Source of the DNA: Candidatus Bathyarchaeia archaeon
GTDB lineage: Archaea; Thermoproteota; Bathyarchaeia; Bathyarchaeales; Bathycorpusculaceae
Assembly: GCA_038883775.1 (NCBI GenBank)
Contig: JAVZLM010000003.1
Coordinates: forward strand, 1-64,000
Direction: 5' to 3'
DNA length: 64,000 nucleotides
How positions within the stretch are numbered: the first letter of the stretch is position 1; every line of letters starts with the position of its first letter. Positions 2 to 24,912 of the stretch are shown here, piece after piece. The notes below the pieces were generated by a model. It was given only the letters and a program-made list of their open reading frames with translations, made no database searches and was not told the origin of the DNA. The translations under genes were made by a program, and so were the position numbers.

Positions 2-400
2 CAAGTTTTGAAAAAGGAGTATGGCGAAGGAGTTTCTCCGGTTAAATTCAAAGAGTTTATGCTTGAGTTTGGCTTCACTGACGCTTTAAACAGAACAAAA
101 TTGAAGGTTCCAATTCCTGGCGATGCGGAACCGAAATCTCGTCTCTGCAACGTTTTCACTGAAAGGGTTTTGAGGAAACTTGGCGTTGAAGAGGAAAGGC
201 AGACTTTACAAGAAATTCTCATCAAGGCTAGAGACTGGATTCTCAAAAACAAAGATGCAAACAGCCTCATCGACCTTTTCTCCTTAACAGAGTATGTTGC
301 TAGTTTAACAGAAGAGGAACCCACAAAAATAATAAGCATTCTGAAAAATGACGGCTTGCTCTTCGATGTAGGCAAACCCGGAAAAATCGGAGCAAAATAG
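2..400 (+). CDS. C-terminal part of a probable replication protein (helicase/primase-type) of an upstream mobile element; 5'-truncated by window edge
   Basis: Frame is open from position 2. It ends in IISILKNDGLLFDVGKPGKI, resembling the C-terminal winged helix of MCM-like/MGE helicases, and abuts an integrase gene. Confidence 0.4.
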   Translation, partial: QVLKKEYGEGVSPVKFKEFMLEFGFTDALNRTKLKVPIPGDAEPKSRLCNVFTERVLRKLGVEEERQTLQEILIKARDWILKNKDANSLIDLFSLTEYVASLTEEEPTKIISILKNDGLLFDVGKPGKIGAK

Positions 401-402
401 CA

Positions 403-1611
403 ATGGTTGTGGCTCCCGCTTGCCCCTCATGCGGTTCAAACCGCCTCTATAAAGACGGCTTACGCTATTTAAGCGACGGCTCAAGCGTCCAGCGTTGGCT
501 TTGCCGAAAATGCGGCTACCGCTTTACAGATCCTAACTATAAAGCTAAAACCGGATGGAGGAATCTTCCATCCGGCTTAAATTTGCCTTCCGGCTTATAC
601 TATTCTTGCCAAGGGAACGATGACCCAGACGGGCGAGTACCCTCCGCCACTGAGGCGGTGCAAACCTTGGCCGAAGTGTCCCAAGAGGAAAAGCGGGCTG
701 CGGGAGCCACAGAGATCAAACCAATGCTTCCATGCATTGAGGGCAAACTAGTGGAATATTTGTGGAAGGCTAAAAAACATGGACTTTCAGAATTAACTAT
801 TAAACAGCGCGTTAGTAAACTTAGATGCCTTGTTAAGATGGGCGCAGATTTACTGAACCCTGAGAGCGTTTCAACCGCGTTAGCTATTAGTGAATTGACA
901 CCGATAAACAAAAAAGGCTACATTATTGCCTACAAAAGTTTCGCCAAAAGTTTTAATTTGCAATGGGAGCCGCCAAGAATAAGTGTGGAAAGAAAAGTTC
1001 CCTTTATTCCAACAGAGGCGGAGATTGACGCATTAATAACTGGGTGTGGACGTAGAACAGCTGCTTTCTTACAAGTGCTGAAAGATACTGGTGCAAGAGG
1101 AGGGGAAGCTGCGAGACTTAAGTGGACTGATGTGGATGAGAAGACAAACACCTTAAGAATAAATAATCCGTTAAAGGGTAGTTTGGCACGAGTGGTCAAA
1201 GTATCACCAAAGACTATTGCTATGCTAAATGCGCTTCCGAAGACTGGCGAATTCATATTCAACACGAACGTCTCGACTGTCCGCAAAAACTTTACTAAGC
1301 AGAGAAATAAGCTTGCAGATAAACTGCAAAGTCCACGGTTGAGGCAGATTCACTTGCACACGTTTCGCCATTGGAAAGCAACCATGGAATATCACAAGAC
1401 GAAGAACATAAAATACGTTCAATACTTGCTTGGACATAAGAAGCTTGAAAACACAGACATCTACACTCACCTAGTGAATTTTGAAAGCGACGAATGGCAT
1501 GTTGCAACTGCAAGAAACATTGAGGAAGAAAAGAAACTTATAGAGGCTGGATTTGAATTTGTCCGCTATAGCGAAAAAGACGAATTGGCTATATATCGGA
1601 AGCGAAAGTAG
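403..1611 (+). CDS. Tyrosine recombinase/integrase with N-terminal Zn ribbon
   Basis: CPSC...CRKC Zn ribbon; catalytic motifs TGARGGE, HTFRH, LLGHKKLENTDIY; stop lies 11 bp before the tRNA-derived att. Confidence 0.92.
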   Translation: MVVAPACPSCGSNRLYKDGLRYLSDGSSVQRWLCRKCGYRFTDPNYKAKTGWRNLPSGLNLPSGLYYSCQGNDDPDGRVPSATEAVQTLAEVSQEEKRAAGATEIKPMLPCIEGKLVEYLWKAKKHGLSELTIKQRVSKLRCLVKMGADLLNPESVSTALAISELTPINKKGYIIAYKSFAKSFNLQWEPPRISVERKVPFIPTEAEIDALITGCGRRTAAFLQVLKDTGARGGEAARLKWTDVDEKTNTLRINNPLKGSLARVVKVSPKTIAMLNALPKTGEFIFNTNVSTVRKNFTKQRNKLADKLQSPRLRQIHLHTFRHWKATMEYHKTKNIKYVQYLLGHKKLENTDIYTHLVNFESDEWHVATARNIEEEKKLIEAGFEFVRYSEKDELAIYRKRK

Positions 1612-1622
1612 AATATCTCAGT

Positions 1623-1666
1623 GGGCCGGTAGTCTAGCTCGGTTAGGACATCCGCTTGACGTGCGG
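1623..1666 (+). repeat. attL: 44-bp copy of the 5' half of tRNA-Val(GAC)
   Basis: GGGCCGGTAGTCTAGCTCGGTTAGGACATCCGCTTGACGTGCGG is identical to 7528-7571. Confidence 0.97.
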
Positions 1667-2491
1667 TTTGAAAGTGTTGATTGGAAGGCTTTTAGAACAT
1701 GGGTTTTCAATAAATATGCTAAGAGCCATGCTCCTACGGTTTATTGTTATGCTCGCAAATACGCTTTCATGTTGAATGGTGATTTTAAAGATTTAGAAAC
1801 CTTTAGCGATAGCAAAAGGAATAGTGTTTTGAAGGCTTTGATTTCGCTTAGCAAGTTTCTAGGCTTTTATGAACAGTTTAAGGTTAGGCTTCAGAATTGC
1901 GGTGTTAAGTTTGCTAGAGCAGACGCTTTCAATAGTTTCCTAAGGATAATGAACAATAATAATGAGGATTTGCTTGAGTGGTTCATTAAGGCTTATGCTC
2001 TGCTTAGGGAAAATGAAAAGTTGTTTTTACGGTATGCTTTAATTTCTGGATTAAGAAAGTCTGAAGCTATCAACAGTTTTAACCTAATCATAGATTTGGC
2101 TAAGAATGGAAGGCTAAGCGAATATTATAATGAAGATTTGCTTTGTCTGGAACATTTCCGTTTTAAACAGTTTTTCCTAAGAGGCAAAAAGAACACTTAC
2201 ATAAGTTTCATACCGAAAAGTATGGTTAAAGCGATAGCTGAAAGTGAACCCATAACTTATGAGGCTATACGGAAGAGGCTTCTAAGGAATGGTTTGAGGC
2301 TTAGGATTAACGAGTTAAGAGATTATTTCGCTACTTTCATGGTTAAACATGGCTTGATACGTGAGGAAGTGGATTTGTTGCAGGGAAGGATTCCGCCCAG
2401 CCTTTTTGTGCGTAGCTATTGGAGTCCCAGCCTTAGAGAGCTTAGAGATAGAACGTTGAAAGGCATAGTGGAGATTCAAAATAAAGTATAA
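1623..2491 (+). CDS. int(C): catalytic fragment of SSV-type tyrosine integrase, split by integration
   Basis: The att translates as AGSLARLGHPLDVR in frame. SSV-type motifs SGLRKSEA, RGKK, ELRDYFAT, LLQGR, VRSYW. No credible start codon of its own. Confidence 0.9.
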
Positions 2492-2500
2492 AAAAGAAGG
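2490..2500 (-). terminator. Oligo-T terminator of the capsid-like gene
   Basis: Minus strand reads CCTTCTTTTTT(T) about 14 nt after the stop at 2514, in the convergent gap. Confidence 0.5.
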
Positions 2501-2513
2501 GTTTAGTGTGGTT

Positions 2514-2801
2514 TTACATTCCCCTACGGACATAGCTTAGTATTATGACTGCACCCACGATTATTGGAATAATCACTAATAACGTCATGGCAACCCAAAT
2601 GTTGTTTTGAAGCGCCAGCCAAGTGTCGTTTGCAGCTTTACTCCAGCCCTTTTGGGTTTGGCTGCTGATTAGTGACATTATCACGATTATTGCGATGAGC
2701 AGTGAAACCATTATTCCAACCAGTGTACCGACTACTCCGCCTCCACCCGCAGTTGCTTCAGCCCGTTTATCTTCTAAGAATTTCTTCACCTTTTCAAACA
2801 T
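2514..2801 (-). CDS. Small two-helix hydrophobic protein resembling spindle-shaped virus major capsid protein (SSV1 VP1-like)
   Basis: 95 aa from ATG 2801 with strong SD (GAGGGGGGTG, 2811-2820). Basic leader ending KRA, then EATAG, hydrophobic helix 1, loop with sequon NDT, hydrophobic helix 2, basic tail RRGM. Confidence 0.6.
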   Translation of the reverse strand: MFEKVKKFLEDKRAEATAGGGGVVGTLVGIMVSLLIAIIVIMSLISSQTQKGWSKAANDTWLALQNNIWVAMTLLVIIPIIVGAVIILSYVRRGM

Positions 2802-2854
2802 TAGTTTTATCACCCCCCTCATGGTTTTCCTATTTTGTTGATGTAAAGAAAACA

Positions 2855-2901
2855 ATATTTAAGTAAGATAGTATGATACCTATCTTAATATAGACTTACT
2901 T
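2855..2901 (-). promoter_or_regulatory. TATA box plus palindromic operator of the capsid-like gene
   Basis: Minus-strand TTAAATA at ~2856-2862. Adjacent palindrome TAAGATAG-TATGATAC-CTATCTTA (2864-2887) and outer pair AAGTAAG/CTTACTT (2861-2867/2895-2901). Confidence 0.55.
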
Positions 2902-4592: not shown

Positions 4593-4937
4593 TCAAAGAA
4601 CCTCATGCAATTTTGTTATAGGCTTAACGGAAGGCTTAGCCTCAGCTTGACGCTTCCGCTTGTCAATAATGTTTAATTTTTTGCCTTTCCTATCAAGCTT
4701 ATACCTTTCCAGAACCTTCTCGAAAGGAACACCACACGCTAACTCATTAACCGCATTAAGAAACATGGCTTTCCCAATATTGCCTTCAGCAATAGGATAA
4801 TAGGAATCCTCACTATCCAAAACCGATTTTATAATGAAAAGTAATTCTGGAAGGCTTAAAGGTTCTGTGTAGGCTTCTACTAAAACGAGAATATCGTTAG
4901 GCCCTTTCTTGCCATTAACTAAATGCAGAACAACCAT
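4593..4937 (-). CDS. Hypothetical element protein
   Basis: 114-aa ORF in a tightly coupled operon, preceded by a GAGG motif. Confidence 0.7.
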   Translation of the reverse strand: MVVLHLVNGKKGPNDILVLVEAYTEPLSLPELLFIIKSVLDSEDSYYPIAEGNIGKAMFLNAVNELACGVPFEKVLERYKLDRKGKKLNIIDKRKRQAEAKPSVKPITKLHEVL

Positions 4938-5191
4938 TACCGCTTAGCCTCGCCTTCCAGATAAAATTTCAGTTTAAACTCGAAGTCATCAGTTCTCAAA
5001 ACCTTAACTTCATTACCTACGCAAACAAAGTTTTCCCAAAACTGCTCTGGAACACCATCAACCTCGATAATCCTATCTTTAGGAATAGCGTAGATAGACT
5101 TTAGAACCTCATCATCCAAATTAAGAGGCGTTTCAACAATAACGTATTTCTCGTTTTCCTCTATGATTTTCCCACTAAAAATTTCCGTCAT
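4937..5191 (-). CDS. Hypothetical element protein
   Basis: 84-aa ORF; stop overlaps the next ATG. Confidence 0.7.
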   Translation of the reverse strand: MTEIFSGKIIEENEKYVIVETPLNLDDEVLKSIYAIPKDRIIEVDGVPEQFWENFVCVGNEVKVLRTDDFEFKLKFYLEGEAKR

Positions 5192-5194
5192 GGC

Positions 5195-5410
5195 TTAACC
5201 TCTCAGCTTCTCAAACTCCCATGCCAAATCAACATGGCCGTTAAAATAGTAAAGCGTCCCTCTGAGAAGCAACCATTCTAAAGCCTCAACTATTTCCTTT
5301 TCACAGTAGCCTTTCCCTTTGAAAACTTCAACTATCCAATCGAAAAGCTGGTTTCCAGAATCAGCCAAAAACTCGATTATTTCCTTCTCAAGCTTGCTTA
5401 ACTCAGTCAT
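5195..5410 (-). CDS. Small winged-helix-like protein
   Basis: LSKLEKEIIEFL...EIVEALEWLLLRGTLY pattern. Confidence 0.55.
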   Translation of the reverse strand: MTELSKLEKEIIEFLADSGNQLFDWIVEVFKGKGYCEKEIVEALEWLLLRGTLYYFNGHVDLAWEFEKLRG

Positions 5411-5643
5411 GGTTTAGCCTCGCCTTCTAAAACACAAATATCATTTCGTGAACGCATTCCCATTCCATTCGGACATAAAATACGGTAAGGATTAGCCTCA
5501 TCCACTTTACCGCATTTTATACACTTTCGGATTATAATTTTAGGTTCAACTTTAGGCCACTCTATTTTGGCCCTATCAGGCTCAGAATCCAAAGGCTTAG
5601 CTAATAAAATCGACTTCTCTCTTTCGGTTAAGCCCTCATTCAT
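5407..5643 (-). CDS. Small Cys-containing (Zn-finger-like) protein
   Basis: CIKCG...CPNG...C; start MNEGL overlaps the upstream stop. Confidence 0.55.
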   Translation of the reverse strand: MNEGLTEREKSILLAKPLDSEPDRAKIEWPKVEPKIIIRKCIKCGKVDEANPYRILCPNGMGMRSRNDICVLEGEAKP

Positions 5644-6115
5644 TTTTAGCACTTCCTAAGCTGATTATTTGCACGTTTCCAAAACCATCATCTTTGAAGC
5701 GGTAGCCTCGCCTTCTCGCCTCACCTTGAATAAGCTGAGGTTTTACAACATCATTACCTAAAATTGCTTTACGATAGGCTTCCAAAAGCTCATTATCGCT
5801 AAATTTGGAATAATCAACCGATTTAACAACAACCGAGCTTCTTTCAACCTCTAATAGCTTTGCATGGCTAACCTCCACCTCAACTGAGGGCTTCTCCCTT
5901 TCCCTAACAACCTCGACAAGCTTCCGCATATACGCCTCTTTAAACTTCAAATAAGTTTCATCATCTATGAAACCTTGATTATGCAAATCCTCGTTAATGC
6001 TGTCCAGGATAGCTGAGCTTTTCCCAATTTCAAATTTCGCCATCTTCTTAATTAAACCCACATAAAGCTCTGTGGGAAGGAAAACCATGTGTGCGTTGGG
6101 CCTTTCCTCACTCAT
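5636..6115 (-). CDS. Hypothetical protein with N-terminal RHH-like segment
   Basis: Likely start MSEERP (ATG 6115, SD GGGTGG); HMVFLPTELYVGLIKKMAKFEIGKSSAILDSI has an RHH-like pattern. Confidence 0.55.
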   Translation of the reverse strand: MSEERPNAHMVFLPTELYVGLIKKMAKFEIGKSSAILDSINEDLHNQGFIDDETYLKFKEAYMRKLVEVVREREKPSVEVEVSHAKLLEVERSSVVVKSVDYSKFSDNELLEAYRKAILGNDVVKPQLIQGEARRRGYRFKDDGFGNVQIISLGSAKNE

Positions 6116-6308
6116 TGAACCACCCGCCGGAGGAAAAGTTTGTTTCTTTAGTGAAGGGGTTAGTTGTTGTTTGTGGGACTTGGGAAAAGACGACTTGACA
6201 GTTAGACAGACAACTGTCATTTTTAAAGAAAAGACATTTACACGCTTTCGCAAACGCTTTTTTCCTTCTTGTGCAAAGTTTTTTAAGTCGTAAGTGTTCA
6301 TATACCAT
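6108..6308 (-). CDS. Small Cys-rich protein
   Basis: ATG 6308 with SD AAGGTG; five Cys; stop overlaps the start of the next gene. Confidence 0.45.
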   Translation of the reverse strand: MVYEHLRLKKLCTRRKKAFAKACKCLFFKNDSCLSNCQVVFSQVPQTTTNPFTKETNFSSGGWFNE

Positions 6309-6353
6309 ATTGCCCACCTTTCTTTTTTCTGTTTTTTTGTTAAACTTCCATGA

Positions 6354-6533
6354 TTAGCTTGCTTGTGTTTGGGTTTGGTTTTTTGCGGTTAGAAGGTTTT
6401 TTATGGTTTCAATGATGGCGAATCGGTAGAATCCGCTTCTGCCTAAGCCTAACAGTTTCCGTGCTTCTTCTACTTTTGCGTCTAATTCTTTTGGCAGCCA
6501 AACTGTCCGCCTAATTCCAGATTCTTTTTCCAT
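6354..6533 (-). CDS. Ribbon-helix-helix (CopG-like) regulator
   Basis: RRTVWLPKELDAKVEEARKLLGLGRSGFYRFAI; SD GTGAGGTG upstream of ATG 6533. Confidence 0.75.
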   Translation of the reverse strand: MEKESGIRRTVWLPKELDAKVEEARKLLGLGRSGFYRFAIIETIKNLLTAKNQTQTQAS

Positions 6534-6551
6534 TTTGCTTTTACACCTCAC

Positions 6552-6642: not shown

Positions 6643-7257
6643 ATGGAAAAAGGCGTAGGCGAATACCAAATAAAAAAAGCTCAAACATCAGAGAAACAGA
6701 TTCTCGAAATCCTTTCAGATGGAAAATGGCATAGGTATCAGGAATTACTTGCGAAAACAAAGTTAAGCACAGCCACACTTTCTAAGCATTTGAAAAGGCT
6801 TGAGAAGGGCCTAATCGAGAAGCGGTTAGATTTGGAAAGCGGAGAATACCCTTATCCCGTTTATTACCGTTTAAAGCCTGATTTACATTTTGAAGCAATT
6901 AAAGAGTGGAGAGATTTTCTGCTTAAGGAAATAACTGCAACTAAAGTCAATGTTCCTGAATACTATATCGAATTCTTAAACCAATTAGTAGGCCTTCAAG
7001 CCTTAGAGAACCTAAAATACTACTTTGGAGTTACTGAAAGCGAACAAATCTTTGAGCAATTGTTAGAATTTCAAGTTTTAAGCGTTTACAGAGAAGCCAT
7101 CTACACTTTAAGAGAGAAATTGAAAGCGTCTGGAAAATCTTATCATGACTTAGAAATTTTGATAGGTGAAGCTGAAGAAAGAATGGCAACAGATTTCGAA
7201 AGAATGTTAAAGGCGAAACGCAAAGATAAGAAATTCCTAAAGAGGTGGGAAGAATGA
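6643..7257 (+). CDS. Winged-helix (ArsR/HxlR-like) transcriptional regulator
   Basis: ILEILSDGKWHRYQELLAKTKLSTATLSKHLKRLEKGLIEKR...VYYRL. Confidence 0.8.
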   Translation: MEKGVGEYQIKKAQTSEKQILEILSDGKWHRYQELLAKTKLSTATLSKHLKRLEKGLIEKRLDLESGEYPYPVYYRLKPDLHFEAIKEWRDFLLKEITATKVNVPEYYIEFLNQLVGLQALENLKYYFGVTESEQIFEQLLEFQVLSVYREAIYTLREKLKASGKSYHDLEILIGEAEERMATDFERMLKAKRKDKKFLKRWEE

Positions 7258-7571
7258 GTGATTCGGGTTTGAACCTAACTTCCACGTGGAAAACTCAGCA
7301 AATTCCACGTGGAAAACACCACAACAAAACCCTAACCAAAACCACAGTTTCACTATACCTAAGCAAAAATTTAGTGGAAAAAGCTAAAAAACAAGGTTTA
7401 AACCTAAGCAGAATCACAGAGGAAGCTCTTTCAAGCATTCTAAACTATATGGAAGCTCAAAACATACAAACAAACGAAACCGAAAGCTCTAAATTTCTTA
7501 GTGAAGCTTCTTTTCTAAAGAAGGTTCGGGCCGGTAGTCTAGCTCGGTTAGGACATCCGCTTGACGTGCGG
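7254..7571 (+). CDS. int(N): N-terminal fragment of the split integrase, with RHH (CcdA-like) domain
   Basis: ATG overlaps the upstream stop (ATGA). KTTVSLYLSKNLVEKAKKQGLNLSRITEEAL is RHH-like. Reads through attR as AGSLARLGHPLDVR, the same frame as int(C). Confidence 0.85.
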
Positions 7572-7602
7572 AAGGTCACCGGTTCAAATCCGGTCCGGCC
7601 CA
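7528..7602 (+). tRNA. tRNA-Val(GAC), intronless; first 44 nt form attR
   Basis: Acceptor GGGCCGG/CCGGCCC+A, anticodon arm TCCGC-TTGACGT-GCGGA, T-loop GGTTCAAATCC; CCA not encoded. Confidence 0.97.
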
Positions 7603-7648
7603 CTTAAGCTTAAATTCTGATATTTCCTACAATCTGGGTAAAGCAGCT

Positions 7649-24360: not shown

Positions 24361-24912
24361 CTACCCTAACTTTTCAATAACTTTTTCAACTTTCAAGTAG
24401 CATTTGTTACAGAATAAACTTTGCTTTCTATCCGTGTCGAATATAGAATTGGAGAAAAACATAACGCAAAAAGGATTAGAACAATGCCTCAAACCTAAAG
24501 CGTGTCCAAGCTCATGCACCGCTTCTTTTGTGCTTCTCTCCAGAAAAAGCTCCATGTTTGGACGCTCACCATAAAATTCTGGCTTAAGTCTCCACAAAGA
24601 TATTAATGCTGCTTTTCCTAGGCATTCTGCCTCTCCAAAAACAAAGTTTAACCCCGGAACGAAGATGTCAACATCCACAATCCCAAGAACCCGATGTAAG
24701 GCTTCCTCTTTTTCCGTATACTCTCGAACCTTGCTTAATATGGCACTGGAAAAATACTGATTTCTTGTTTTATCGAAGGTTTCTTCTGGAATTGGCAACC
24801 TTTTAGGGATAACTACACATGTGGTTTTTGGAAAAATCATTCTCAAGTTTTCCTGAATTCTTTGGATTATATTGGAATTTATTTTTCCAATTTGCAATAT
24901 TCCAATTTTCAT
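24361..24912 (-). CDS. amzA: Archaemetzincin Zn protease
   Basis: NFVFGEA, HELGHALGLRHC..PFCVM, FCNKC. Confidence 0.9.
   Translation of the reverse strand: MKIGILQIGKINSNIIQRIQENLRMIFPKTTCVVIPKRLPIPEETFDKTRNQYFSSAILSKVREYTEKEEALHRVLGIVDVDIFVPGLNFVFGEAECLGKAALISLWRLKPEFYGERPNMELFLERSTKEAVHELGHALGLRHCSNPFCVMFFSNSIFDTDRKQSLFCNKCYLKVEKVIEKLG

Follow-up and report, generated by a model that had tools for sequence, protein, structure and literature searches.

A fusellovirus VP1-like hairpin protein on small integrated elements of Bathyarchaeia, and a candidate A24 peptidase for its maturation

RESULTS AND DISCUSSION

The p95 gene and its product

The first 64,000 nucleotides of contig JAVZLM010000003.1, from assembly GCA_038883775.1 of a Candidatus Bathyarchaeia archaeon (this whole stretch is called the window below), carry a 5,905-bp element integrated in a tRNA-Val gene (Table 1). 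One of its genes, p95, encodes a small hydrophobic protein (P0001) that resembles VP1, the capsid protein of the fuselloviruses. A sequence-only reading of this DNA had named the product an SSV1 VP1-like protein with a basic leader ending in KRA-EAT (a hyphen marks a known or putative cut site throughout), and had given a conjugative pilin of the VirB2/CedA1 kind as the alternative. The analysis presented here upholds the first identity and speaks against the second.

The p95 open reading frame (ORF) gives a product of 95 amino acids that begins MFEKVKKFLEDKRAEATAGGGG; an alternative, longer frame of 113 amino acids opens at a TTG start at 2855. At the N-terminus the leader MFEKVKKFLEDKRA is followed by EATAGGGGVVG. 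Hydropathy in 19-residue windows shows two hydrophobic segments, at residues ~17-50 and ~62-95, the single sequon is NDT at 58-60, and the C-terminal tail, SYVRRGM, is basic. The two helices, sequon, and basic tail of the sequence-only reading are thus confirmed by hydropathy, by the sequence, and by an AlphaFold2 model made with 60 homologues (mean predicted local distance difference test score, 85.8; predicted template modelling score, 0.61). The model has helices at 2-10 (a short leader helix), 13-46, 55-75, and 77-92, with a kink at 76 and a loop at 47-54, and its confidence is low at 16-18, just past the proposed cut. Two hydrophobic alpha-helices, a short loop, and a mature length of ~70 to 80 residues, by which VP1-type proteins are recognized, are all found in p95 by hydropathy and AlphaFold2.

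The sequence-only reading also gave the gene its own Shine-Dalgarno sequence, TATA box, and terminator; a Shine-Dalgarno-like sequence, TATA-like A/T boxes 52 to 91 nt 5' of p95, and a six-T run, all putative signals, can be read in the DNA. At 2745-2749, in the glycine-run codons after the putative cut, contigs of two sequencing runs carry deletions of 1 to 3 nt relative to the window, which agrees with length variation at the same place in the protein alignment. None of the sequencing runs listed for the element is an RNA run.

Table 1. Features of the p95 element, with positions in the window
Feature	Position	Strand	Basis or remark
attL, 44-nt perfect copy of the 5' part of tRNA-Val	1623..1666	plus	Direct repeat
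Split SSV-type integrase, C-terminal part	1667..2491	plus	PF16795, 40.7 bits; phrog_5127
Six-T run, archaeal terminator-like	2490..2495	minus	~18 nt past the p95 stop; read directly
p95 (P0001), VP1-type alpha-hairpin protein	2514..2801	minus	ORF, alignment, hydropathy, AlphaFold2
p95 layout, in residues: leader 1-14; putative cut between A14 and E15; helix 1 ~15-46; loop 47-54; sequon N58; helix 2 ~55-92; basic tail			
Shine-Dalgarno-like GAGGGGGGTGAT	2809..2820	minus	7-nt spacer to the p95 ATG at 2801; read directly
A/T-rich block with TATA-like boxes, putative promoter	2847..2890	minus	Sequence comparison with contig L002
p185, partner gene upstream of p95; conserved N-domain and weak helix-turn-helix	2903..3460	minus	
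XerC/D-like tyrosine recombinase, 290 aa	3651..4523	minus	68% identical homologue in L055, L056
Six small genes (114, 84, 71, 81, 221, and 65 aa)	4593..6551	minus	No confident family
Winged-helix regulator, 204 aa	6643..7257	plus	HTH_5, 24.7 bits
Split integrase, N-terminal part with RHH/CcdA-like stretch	7245..7527	plus	In frame with the C-terminal part across att
attR, inside tRNA-Val(GAC) (7528-7603)	7528..7571	plus	Direct repeat

Specific similarity to fusellovirus VP1

A word-indexed search found 39 p95-family proteins, the query included, at E ≤ 0.01 (69 candidates), and HMMER, run exhaustively over 1.84 billion representatives, gave 28 at E ≤ 0.001. Two of the p95 homologues are hypothetical proteins of Bathyarchaeia metagenome-assembled genomes. 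Residues N58 and T60 are kept in at least 90% of the homologues, in the alignment of 39 sequences as in that of 60. In the aligned family the basic N-terminus varies, whereas D-K-R-A/G is conserved and leads into helix 1, which opens rich in Gly; the loop (SQTQxGWSxxANxTW) is conserved as well, helix 2 has a proline, and the sequences end in YVRRGM.

When the profile of the 39-member alignment was compared with 177,635 distinct Protein Data Bank (PDB) sequences, the sole match at E ≤ 10 was chain 7xdi_A, named "VP1," at E 0.0083. With the 60-member profile the same chain was the sole significant match (E 0.0021); the similarity is modest (21 bits), but almost all of the hairpin is aligned, with profile positions 17-83 opposite chain residues 10-77. 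The runners-up, neither of them significant, were an archaeal flagellin leader (E 3.4) and a hydrogenlyase subunit (E 4.7). The sequence of chain 7xdi_A is that of SSV19 VP1, and the plan of two helices and a loop in p95 agrees with the structure described for that protein, in which the helices span 15-44 and 54-83 and the loop faces outward (PMC9351363).

Decoy searches in both directions gave the same answer. The family hidden Markov model (HMM) was run with filters off against 6,568 six-frame host ORFs (of at least 50 amino acids) and 17 spindle-virus major capsid proteins (MCPs); seven of the eight fusellovirus VP1s took ranks 2 to 8, at 18.9 to 24.0 bits, behind the p95 gene itself, while the best host ORF scored 16.3 bits. 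In reverse, an HMM of VP1 searched a set made up of the host ORFs, 61 p95-family members, and six control clusters, and every one of its top 45 matches came from the p95 family. Profile-profile comparison with hhalign placed the p95 family against the eight fusellovirus VP1s at 73.4% (E 3e-5), with KRA-E aligned to TKG-E, whereas six other small membrane-protein clusters of the same loci, compared with VP1, VP3, or both, reached at most 5.6%; the accepted pair of VP1 and His1 VP21 gave 33% in the same set-up. Among PHROGs families, phrog_11172 (fusellovirus VP1) was matched by 25 of 63 sequences, SSV1 VP1 and VP3 included, and the runner-up family by 7. In a protein-language-model atlas the nearest named clusters were VP1_VP3 (0.88) and His1_capsid (0.87), which we take as leads only. 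Profile comparison of p95 with VP1 and with pilins, proposed in the sequence-only reading as a check on its two identities, came out for VP1 and against the pilins.

On these sequence comparisons, the p95 family is related to VP1 distantly but specifically. Size and the two-helix hydrophobic hairpin are common to both, as is a basic leader ending in [K/R][K/R][A/G] before a glutamate (RRA-EAT in SSVRH, KRA-EAT in p95). In both, helix 2 contains a proline, an NxT sequon lies close to the loop, and the C-terminal end is basic. Identity between p95 and the fusellovirus proteins is only ~20 to 30%, and p95 does not reach the curated Pfam cut-off. At the level of the loci, both have a linked SSV-type integrase, and a B251-like ATPase is found with p95 relatives; unlike the Fuselloviridae, the p95 loci have no VP3 paralogue and no VP2. 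The host is a member of the Bathyarchaeia rather than of the Sulfolobales, the hosts of the SSVs, and p95 is carried on a 5.9-kb element.

Some variant forms of the gene were seen. Leaderless versions that start at helix 1 occur at L080:9883-10125 and L081:9870-10112 and in proteins P0035, P0036, and P0038; they recall the relation of VP3 to VP1 in the fuselloviruses. The p95 copy on contig G322:C2 has one in-frame TAA. The C-terminal half of p95 alone was matched (61% identity) at L043:1775-1927 and in L044 and L045, among host-like neighbors (RadA in L045), and these matches may be remnants of degraded elements.

A class III-like leader and linked A24 peptidase genes

The sequence-only reading gave mature SSV1 VP1 a start at EAT, and this is correct. 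The SSV1 VP1 ORF reads ...KLTKG-EATNIG..., the N-terminal residue of VP1 in the virion is reported to be the conserved glutamate E66, and the N-terminus-deletion primer of the same study encodes M-E-A-T-N-I (Iverson et al. 2017, PMC5748691). The protease that processes VP1 is described there as unknown and as a goal for future work (PMC5748691).

The leader ending of p95 recurs through much of its family. A regular expression found [K/R/H][G/A] directly before the hydrophobic helix in 43 of the 60 members (RA in 26, KG in 6, RG in 5, KA in 3, HG in 2, and HA in 1), and the same motif stands in all seven fusellovirus VP1s that have a leader, which ends in TKG-E, AKA-E, KKA-E, or RRA-E. The pattern of a class III signal peptide, namely, a charged leader, [K/R][G/A] at positions -2/-1, and then a hydrophobic stretch, is present in the p95 family. 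A cut on the N-terminal side of the hydrophobic helix sets class III signal peptides apart from ordinary ones. The host proteins that the family HMM matched best were two pilin-like proteins with class III leaders, ...KNKKA-LSTVV... and ...RG-VSPAISTV....

In seven loci (L024, L025, L029, L035, L037, L042, and L051), p95 is followed on its own strand, after 43 to 702 nt, by a gene for an A24 peptidase (L025:10997-11542 and L037:3050-3550, for example). The encoded proteins are 135 to 181 amino acids long where complete (one ends at a contig edge), all six of those tested match Peptidase_A24 (PF01478), with five reaching the curated cut-off, and alignment with the host enzyme shows that both Asp motifs are kept. 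These viral peptidases are minimal, being without the ~100-residue insertion of the host enzyme. Five of the seven linked loci have a nonbasic residue (V, Y, I, or A) at -2, which might explain a dedicated peptidase. The host genome has a single A24 gene (49.4 bits), at G000:C9, around 24450-24809.

Like the class III substrates of PibD and FlaK, p95 thus has a short charged leader with [K/R][G/A] at -2/-1, a putative cut site before a hydrophobic stretch, and, in the seven loci, an A24 gene beside the substrate gene. It differs from them in being a two-helix hairpin without a globular domain and in the frequency of Glu at +1, and its loci differ from type IV pilus systems in having neither an assembly ATPase nor a platform protein. 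In the literature we found no published link between VP1 processing and prepilin peptidase. An S. islandicus strain mutated in pibD is reported to have failed to support SSV9, which is explained in that study by the loss of pilins (PMC7217056).

Anatomy of the 5,905-bp element

Joined across att, as in a circularized element, the two integrase parts form an open frame of 383 amino acids (for the C-terminal part, the listed ORF opens at 1553 and runs on through attL), and this single frame bespeaks the gene-splitting integration typical of SSV-type integrases. No other virion gene and no replication or packaging gene could be recognized in the element with Pfam, PHROGs, and PADLOC; PADLOC gave only generic helix-turn-helix (HTH) matches and no defense family for the 10 element proteins, and the protein-language-model atlas returned nothing usable for p185. 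Since every other virion gene is absent, the element is not a complete spindle virus. Of the six small genes, that for the 114-amino-acid protein (p114) recurs in L021, L034, and L078. A 20-mer scan of the host genome for clustered regularly interspaced short palindromic repeats found no array, and there is therefore no spacer link.

Several further features of the locus are recorded here. Left of attL, at the start of the contig, a second tyrosine integrase (403-1611; 402 amino acids, with a zinc-ribbon N-terminus and PF00589) lies downstream of a truncated ORF. Genome G288 has homologues of this integrase in three small elements, and the ~6.3-kb contigs L055 and L056 carry others; window positions 2-1611 may be the end of a second, tandem-integrated element cut off by the assembly. 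Near attR, within the 5' portion of the split integrase gene, positions 7277-7322 hold two tandem 23-nt copies, 83% alike, with the palindrome CCACGTGG, which may be a protein-binding site. The RHH stretch of the N-terminal integrase part matches the CcdA antitoxin family PF07362 above its cut-off (27.7 bits), and a similar stretch is present in a 4.1-kb element of genome G322 (L081:12707-13093).

Large virus-like contigs share a conserved module

Scanning metagenomes for p95 gave 56 loci, and in most of them the gene lies within a conserved, co-oriented module of at least eight genes. The module runs from a protein of 550 to 1,234 amino acids through two membrane proteins of ~85 amino acids, a 400- to 760-amino-acid protein, a ~140-amino-acid protein, and a 100- to 700-amino-acid protein to p95, which is followed by more small membrane proteins and two soluble proteins. 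The large module proteins belong to no Pfam family, except for beta-helix/NosD/collagen and pectate-lyase-like fiber domains. In a Pfam census of 134 ORFs of at least 100 amino acids from 13 loci (169 candidates less overlapping or antisense ORFs and the p95 ORFs), the matches listed (25 of 50 families) included DNA methylases, HNH, NosD/beta-helix, glycosyltransferase, the SSV-type integrase, Peptidase_A24, and flanking host genes. Proteins of 400 to 1,234 amino acids together with small membrane proteins stand upstream of p95 in L002, L015, L016, L025, L032, L036, L042, L050, L051, and L053, and L036:11143-13272 combines collagen and beta-helix domains. These contigs may represent a new group of spindle viruses, with tail, adaptor, or nozzle proteins among the products of the module.

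Of the 236 ORFs that encode 120 amino acids or more in 57 loci, 10 have a Walker A motif. The sole Walker A protein in the conserved part is one of 227 to 263 amino acids, present in L002 and L016 and as a fragment in L015, and it matches SSV1 B251, a DnaA-like AAA+ ATPase (98.2%, E 3.6e-14, over 192 columns). No secretion ATPase was found in the structural module. All other module clusters and the p185 family scored below 3% against SSV1 proteins in hhalign, and a 556-amino-acid P-loop protein of L055 had no Pfam and no PDB match. SSV-type integrases are carried by L053 and L054. The linkages characteristic of fuselloviruses are found both in the window, with its PF16795 integrase, and in L002, L015, and L016, with their B251-like protein. 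Given this ATPase and these integrases, the large p95 contigs look like a fusellovirus-like virus group with otherwise new genes.

Small elements and their likely dependence on a helper

Among 401 Bathyarchaeia genomes, six carry p95, one of them in three copies and another in two, and all of these copies lie in small integrated elements of 4 to 8 kb. A scan of a one-genome-per-species collection gave a single p95 locus, L001, on a 5,255-bp contig labeled Thermoplasmatota, and no second Bathyarchaeia relative. In L001, whose host label is uncertain given so short a contig, p95 adjoins an amino-acid kinase gene and a zinc-ribbon ORF that is common to five metagenome loci. The five extra copies in Bathyarchaeia are each beside a p185 homologue. 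Two of their elements, of 5.3 and 4.1 kb, have split SSV-type integrases with repeats of 44 and 43 nt; the other three have another integrase type, two being beside a tRNA gene (Thr and Lys), with no tRNA detected at the third locus. The 4.1-kb element holds only the integrase, a leaderless p95, p185, a 127-amino-acid protein, and a winged-helix protein. Two contigs of ~6.3 kb, L055 and L056, have homologues of p95, p185, the Xer-like recombinase, and the second integrase, and terminal overlaps that suggest free circles. The expectation of a mobile-element context was borne out, the homologues being in integrated elements and virus-like contigs and not in host operons.

In the p95 tree, the copies of small elements are scattered among those of large contigs, with at least four label changes forced by well-supported branches. 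The window p95 is sister to that of L002 (support, 97/81; 84% identity), and the DNA of the two is 74.5% identical over 255 nt of the p95 gene and 84% over the 44-nt A/T-rich block upstream (2847-2890). The scattering and the likeness to L002 fit dependent elements that have repeatedly taken the coat gene from helpers. The window element has some of the properties by which a satellite is recognized, being small, having few morphogenesis genes, and holding a virion gene in common with a candidate helper (only p95 is shared, with L002), and it is probably a satellite-like element.

The known archaeal satellites offer a partial parallel. The satellite pSSVx is ~5.7 kb in size, and pSSVi has an SSV-type integrase. 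Both are named as the only archaeal satellites known before the plasmid-derived elements (SRCEs) of halophile spindle viruses, which encode an MCP, an ATPase, or both (bioRxiv 10.1101/2025.02.15.638363). The Saccharolobus elements pSSVx and pSSVi, the SRCEs of halo- and nanohaloarchaea, and the p95 elements are all small, and the satellites borrow the morphogenesis of a helper, as the p95 elements would also do. According to the same preprint, pSSVx lacks an MCP, whereas the p95 elements carry an MCP-like gene; for the SRCEs it gives Rep genes of plasmids and no description of integration (bioRxiv 10.1101/2025.02.15.638363), whereas the p95 elements are integrative, have no recognizable Rep, and always pair p95 with p185.

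Huangdiviridae (Bathyarchaeia baizomonadales Huangdivirus 1) are, according to PMC10541130 and PMC12451623, the only described spindle-type virus of Bathyarchaeia. As described, Huangdivirus 1 is a provirus, as the p95 element is integrated, and has VP1/VP3-like hairpins with N-x-S/T motifs, an AAA+ ATPase, and a tyrosine integrase; unlike the p95 element, it is a full-size provirus with VP2 and a glycosyltransferase (PMC10541130, PMC12451623).

Weighing the coat-protein reading against its alternatives

We consider it moderately probable that p95 is a fusellovirus VP1-type major capsid protein, a hydrophobic alpha-helical hairpin, carried on a satellite-like element with a helper and clipped after Ala14 of its leader by an A24 peptidase. 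A number of results weigh against one part or another of this reading. P0001 has no match to Pfam VP1_VP3 (PF06281) at E ≤ 0.1 and reaches no curated model; it falls below phrog_11172; and VP1_VP3 is not among the matches listed (25 of 57 families) in a Pfam scan of the 60 members, whose individual matches are subthreshold noise (DUF4064 in 17, Holin-X in 14, FtsX in 11, His1_capsid in 3, and TrbC/VirB2 in 1). The hhalign scores against VP3 (7%) and His1 VP21 (9%) are low. Foldseek against PDB and BFVD gave nothing at E ≤ 0.001, its best 50 matches being generic helical hairpins with neither 7xdi nor pilins among them; the fold is too simple for a structure search to decide the VP1 relationship. 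A pattern scan of IMG/VR yielded 81 pattern matches, none of which was confirmed as a p95 relative, and tblastn of P0001 against 50,697 phage records found no match at E ≤ 10. As to the leader, some family members begin at the helix, so that cleavage is not universal; the A24 genes are confined to one well-supported clade (13 p95 sequences); and Glu at +1 and leaders of 60 residues or more, as in SSV1, are atypical of class III signal peptides. As to the helper, this 91%-complete genome has no helper virus, second p95 copy, or large module, and contigs of four runs cover the element in pieces that break at att, with no circular or empty-site joint seen.

The absence of a helper from the same genome could also mean that the 5.9-kb element is a self-sufficient minimal virus or a vesicle-borne plasmid in which p95, perhaps with p185, wraps and exports the DNA unaided. 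The p185-p95 pair is constant in all the small elements seen, down to that of 4.1 kb with about six genes, and the terminal overlaps of the two ~6.3-kb contigs point the same way. We nevertheless think this unlikely, because p95 is found mostly in the large module of at least eight genes, the 84% p95 identity and the shared upstream block with a large contig fit helper-dependent exchange, and the element has no recognizable replication or packaging gene. Equally improbable, in our judgment, is a noncapsid surface or membrane protein with a prepilin-type signal peptide, whether an adhesion subunit, a superinfection-exclusion factor, or a dominant-negative "decoy" coat that shields the host from large viruses. 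The class III-like leader, the linked A24 peptidase, and the confinement of the cellular-genome copies to small elements without other virion genes would suit such a protein. Type IV pilins, though, consist of one N-terminal helix plus a globular domain and not of a two-helix hairpin, there are no PilB/PilC-type genes nearby, PADLOC offers the 10 element proteins no defense role beyond generic HTH matches, and the specific, reciprocal similarity is to VP1.

Two further identities have a very low probability. A conjugative pilin of the VirB2, TraA, CedA1, or TedC kind, polymerized into a mating or DNA-uptake pilus, would have the same general shape of a leader, two hydrophobic helices, and a short loop, and one of the 60 members touches Pfam TrbC/VirB2, at an E value of 0.0046 that is below threshold. 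It is hard to reconcile, however, with PDB matches at E ≤ 10 that include no CedA1, TedC, or VirB2 chain, with a conserved module whose only Walker A protein is B251-like and which offers no VirB4, CedB, TraG, or FtsK-type ATPase, with large module proteins that have no Pfam match, and with elements of 4 to 6 kb, too small for a mating apparatus. A pilin identity of p95 failed every test run (PDB profile search, Pfam, and ATPase linkage). Just as improbable is a holin-like or toxic small membrane protein, for lysis or postsegregational killing, to which a weak Phage_holin_3_6 match of P0001 (E 0.0021; 18.6 bits against a cut-off of 28.4), recurring in 14 of the 60 members, would point; this match is subthreshold and one among many equally weak membrane-family matches, a conserved extracytoplasmic NxT loop and a putatively cleavable leader are not holin features, and the gene lies within the structural module of large contigs.

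Proposed course and implications

Under the VP1-type reading, the p95 precursor, with its 14-residue basic leader, would insert into the cell membrane, and the leader would be clipped after Ala14, on the N-terminal side of helix 1. Class III signal peptides are cleaved at this same place, and the task would accordingly fall to an A24 aspartic peptidase, either the single copy of the host or, in some relatives, a virus-encoded copy. The N58 loop would face outward and may be glycosylated, and hairpins packed side by side would form a spindle-type shell around the DNA. With no other recognizable virion gene, the element most likely needs a larger helper, and an L002-type virus would most likely supply the remaining virion parts; the element would then be a satellite that brings its own coat protein.

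We further hypothesize, tentatively and as a possibility that we do not expect to hold in every part, that the leader of VP1-type coat proteins is a class III signal peptide and that their maturation protease is an A24 enzyme, the host PibD/FlaK or, in one clade of Bathyarchaeia viruses, a viral copy. Spindle assembly would then share its membrane-extraction step with the type IV pilus and archaellum, and the 4- to 8-kb elements would be coat-bearing satellites that swap this gene with their helpers.

What is new here is the unannotated large module, the coat-bearing mini-elements, and the A24 peptidase linked to the coat gene. Where a single spindle virus of Bathyarchaeia had been described, the p95 family brings in dozens of contigs whose structural module is conserved and has no other annotation. 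For integrative elements of 4 to 8 kb with a coat gene and little else, the sole precedent that we found is the halophile elements of the 2025 preprint (bioRxiv 10.1101/2025.02.15.638363). With the A24 gene beside the coat gene in the seven loci and the [K/R][A/G]-E site shared by the fuselloviruses, A24 peptidases offer a concrete, testable candidate for the protease that matures VP1.

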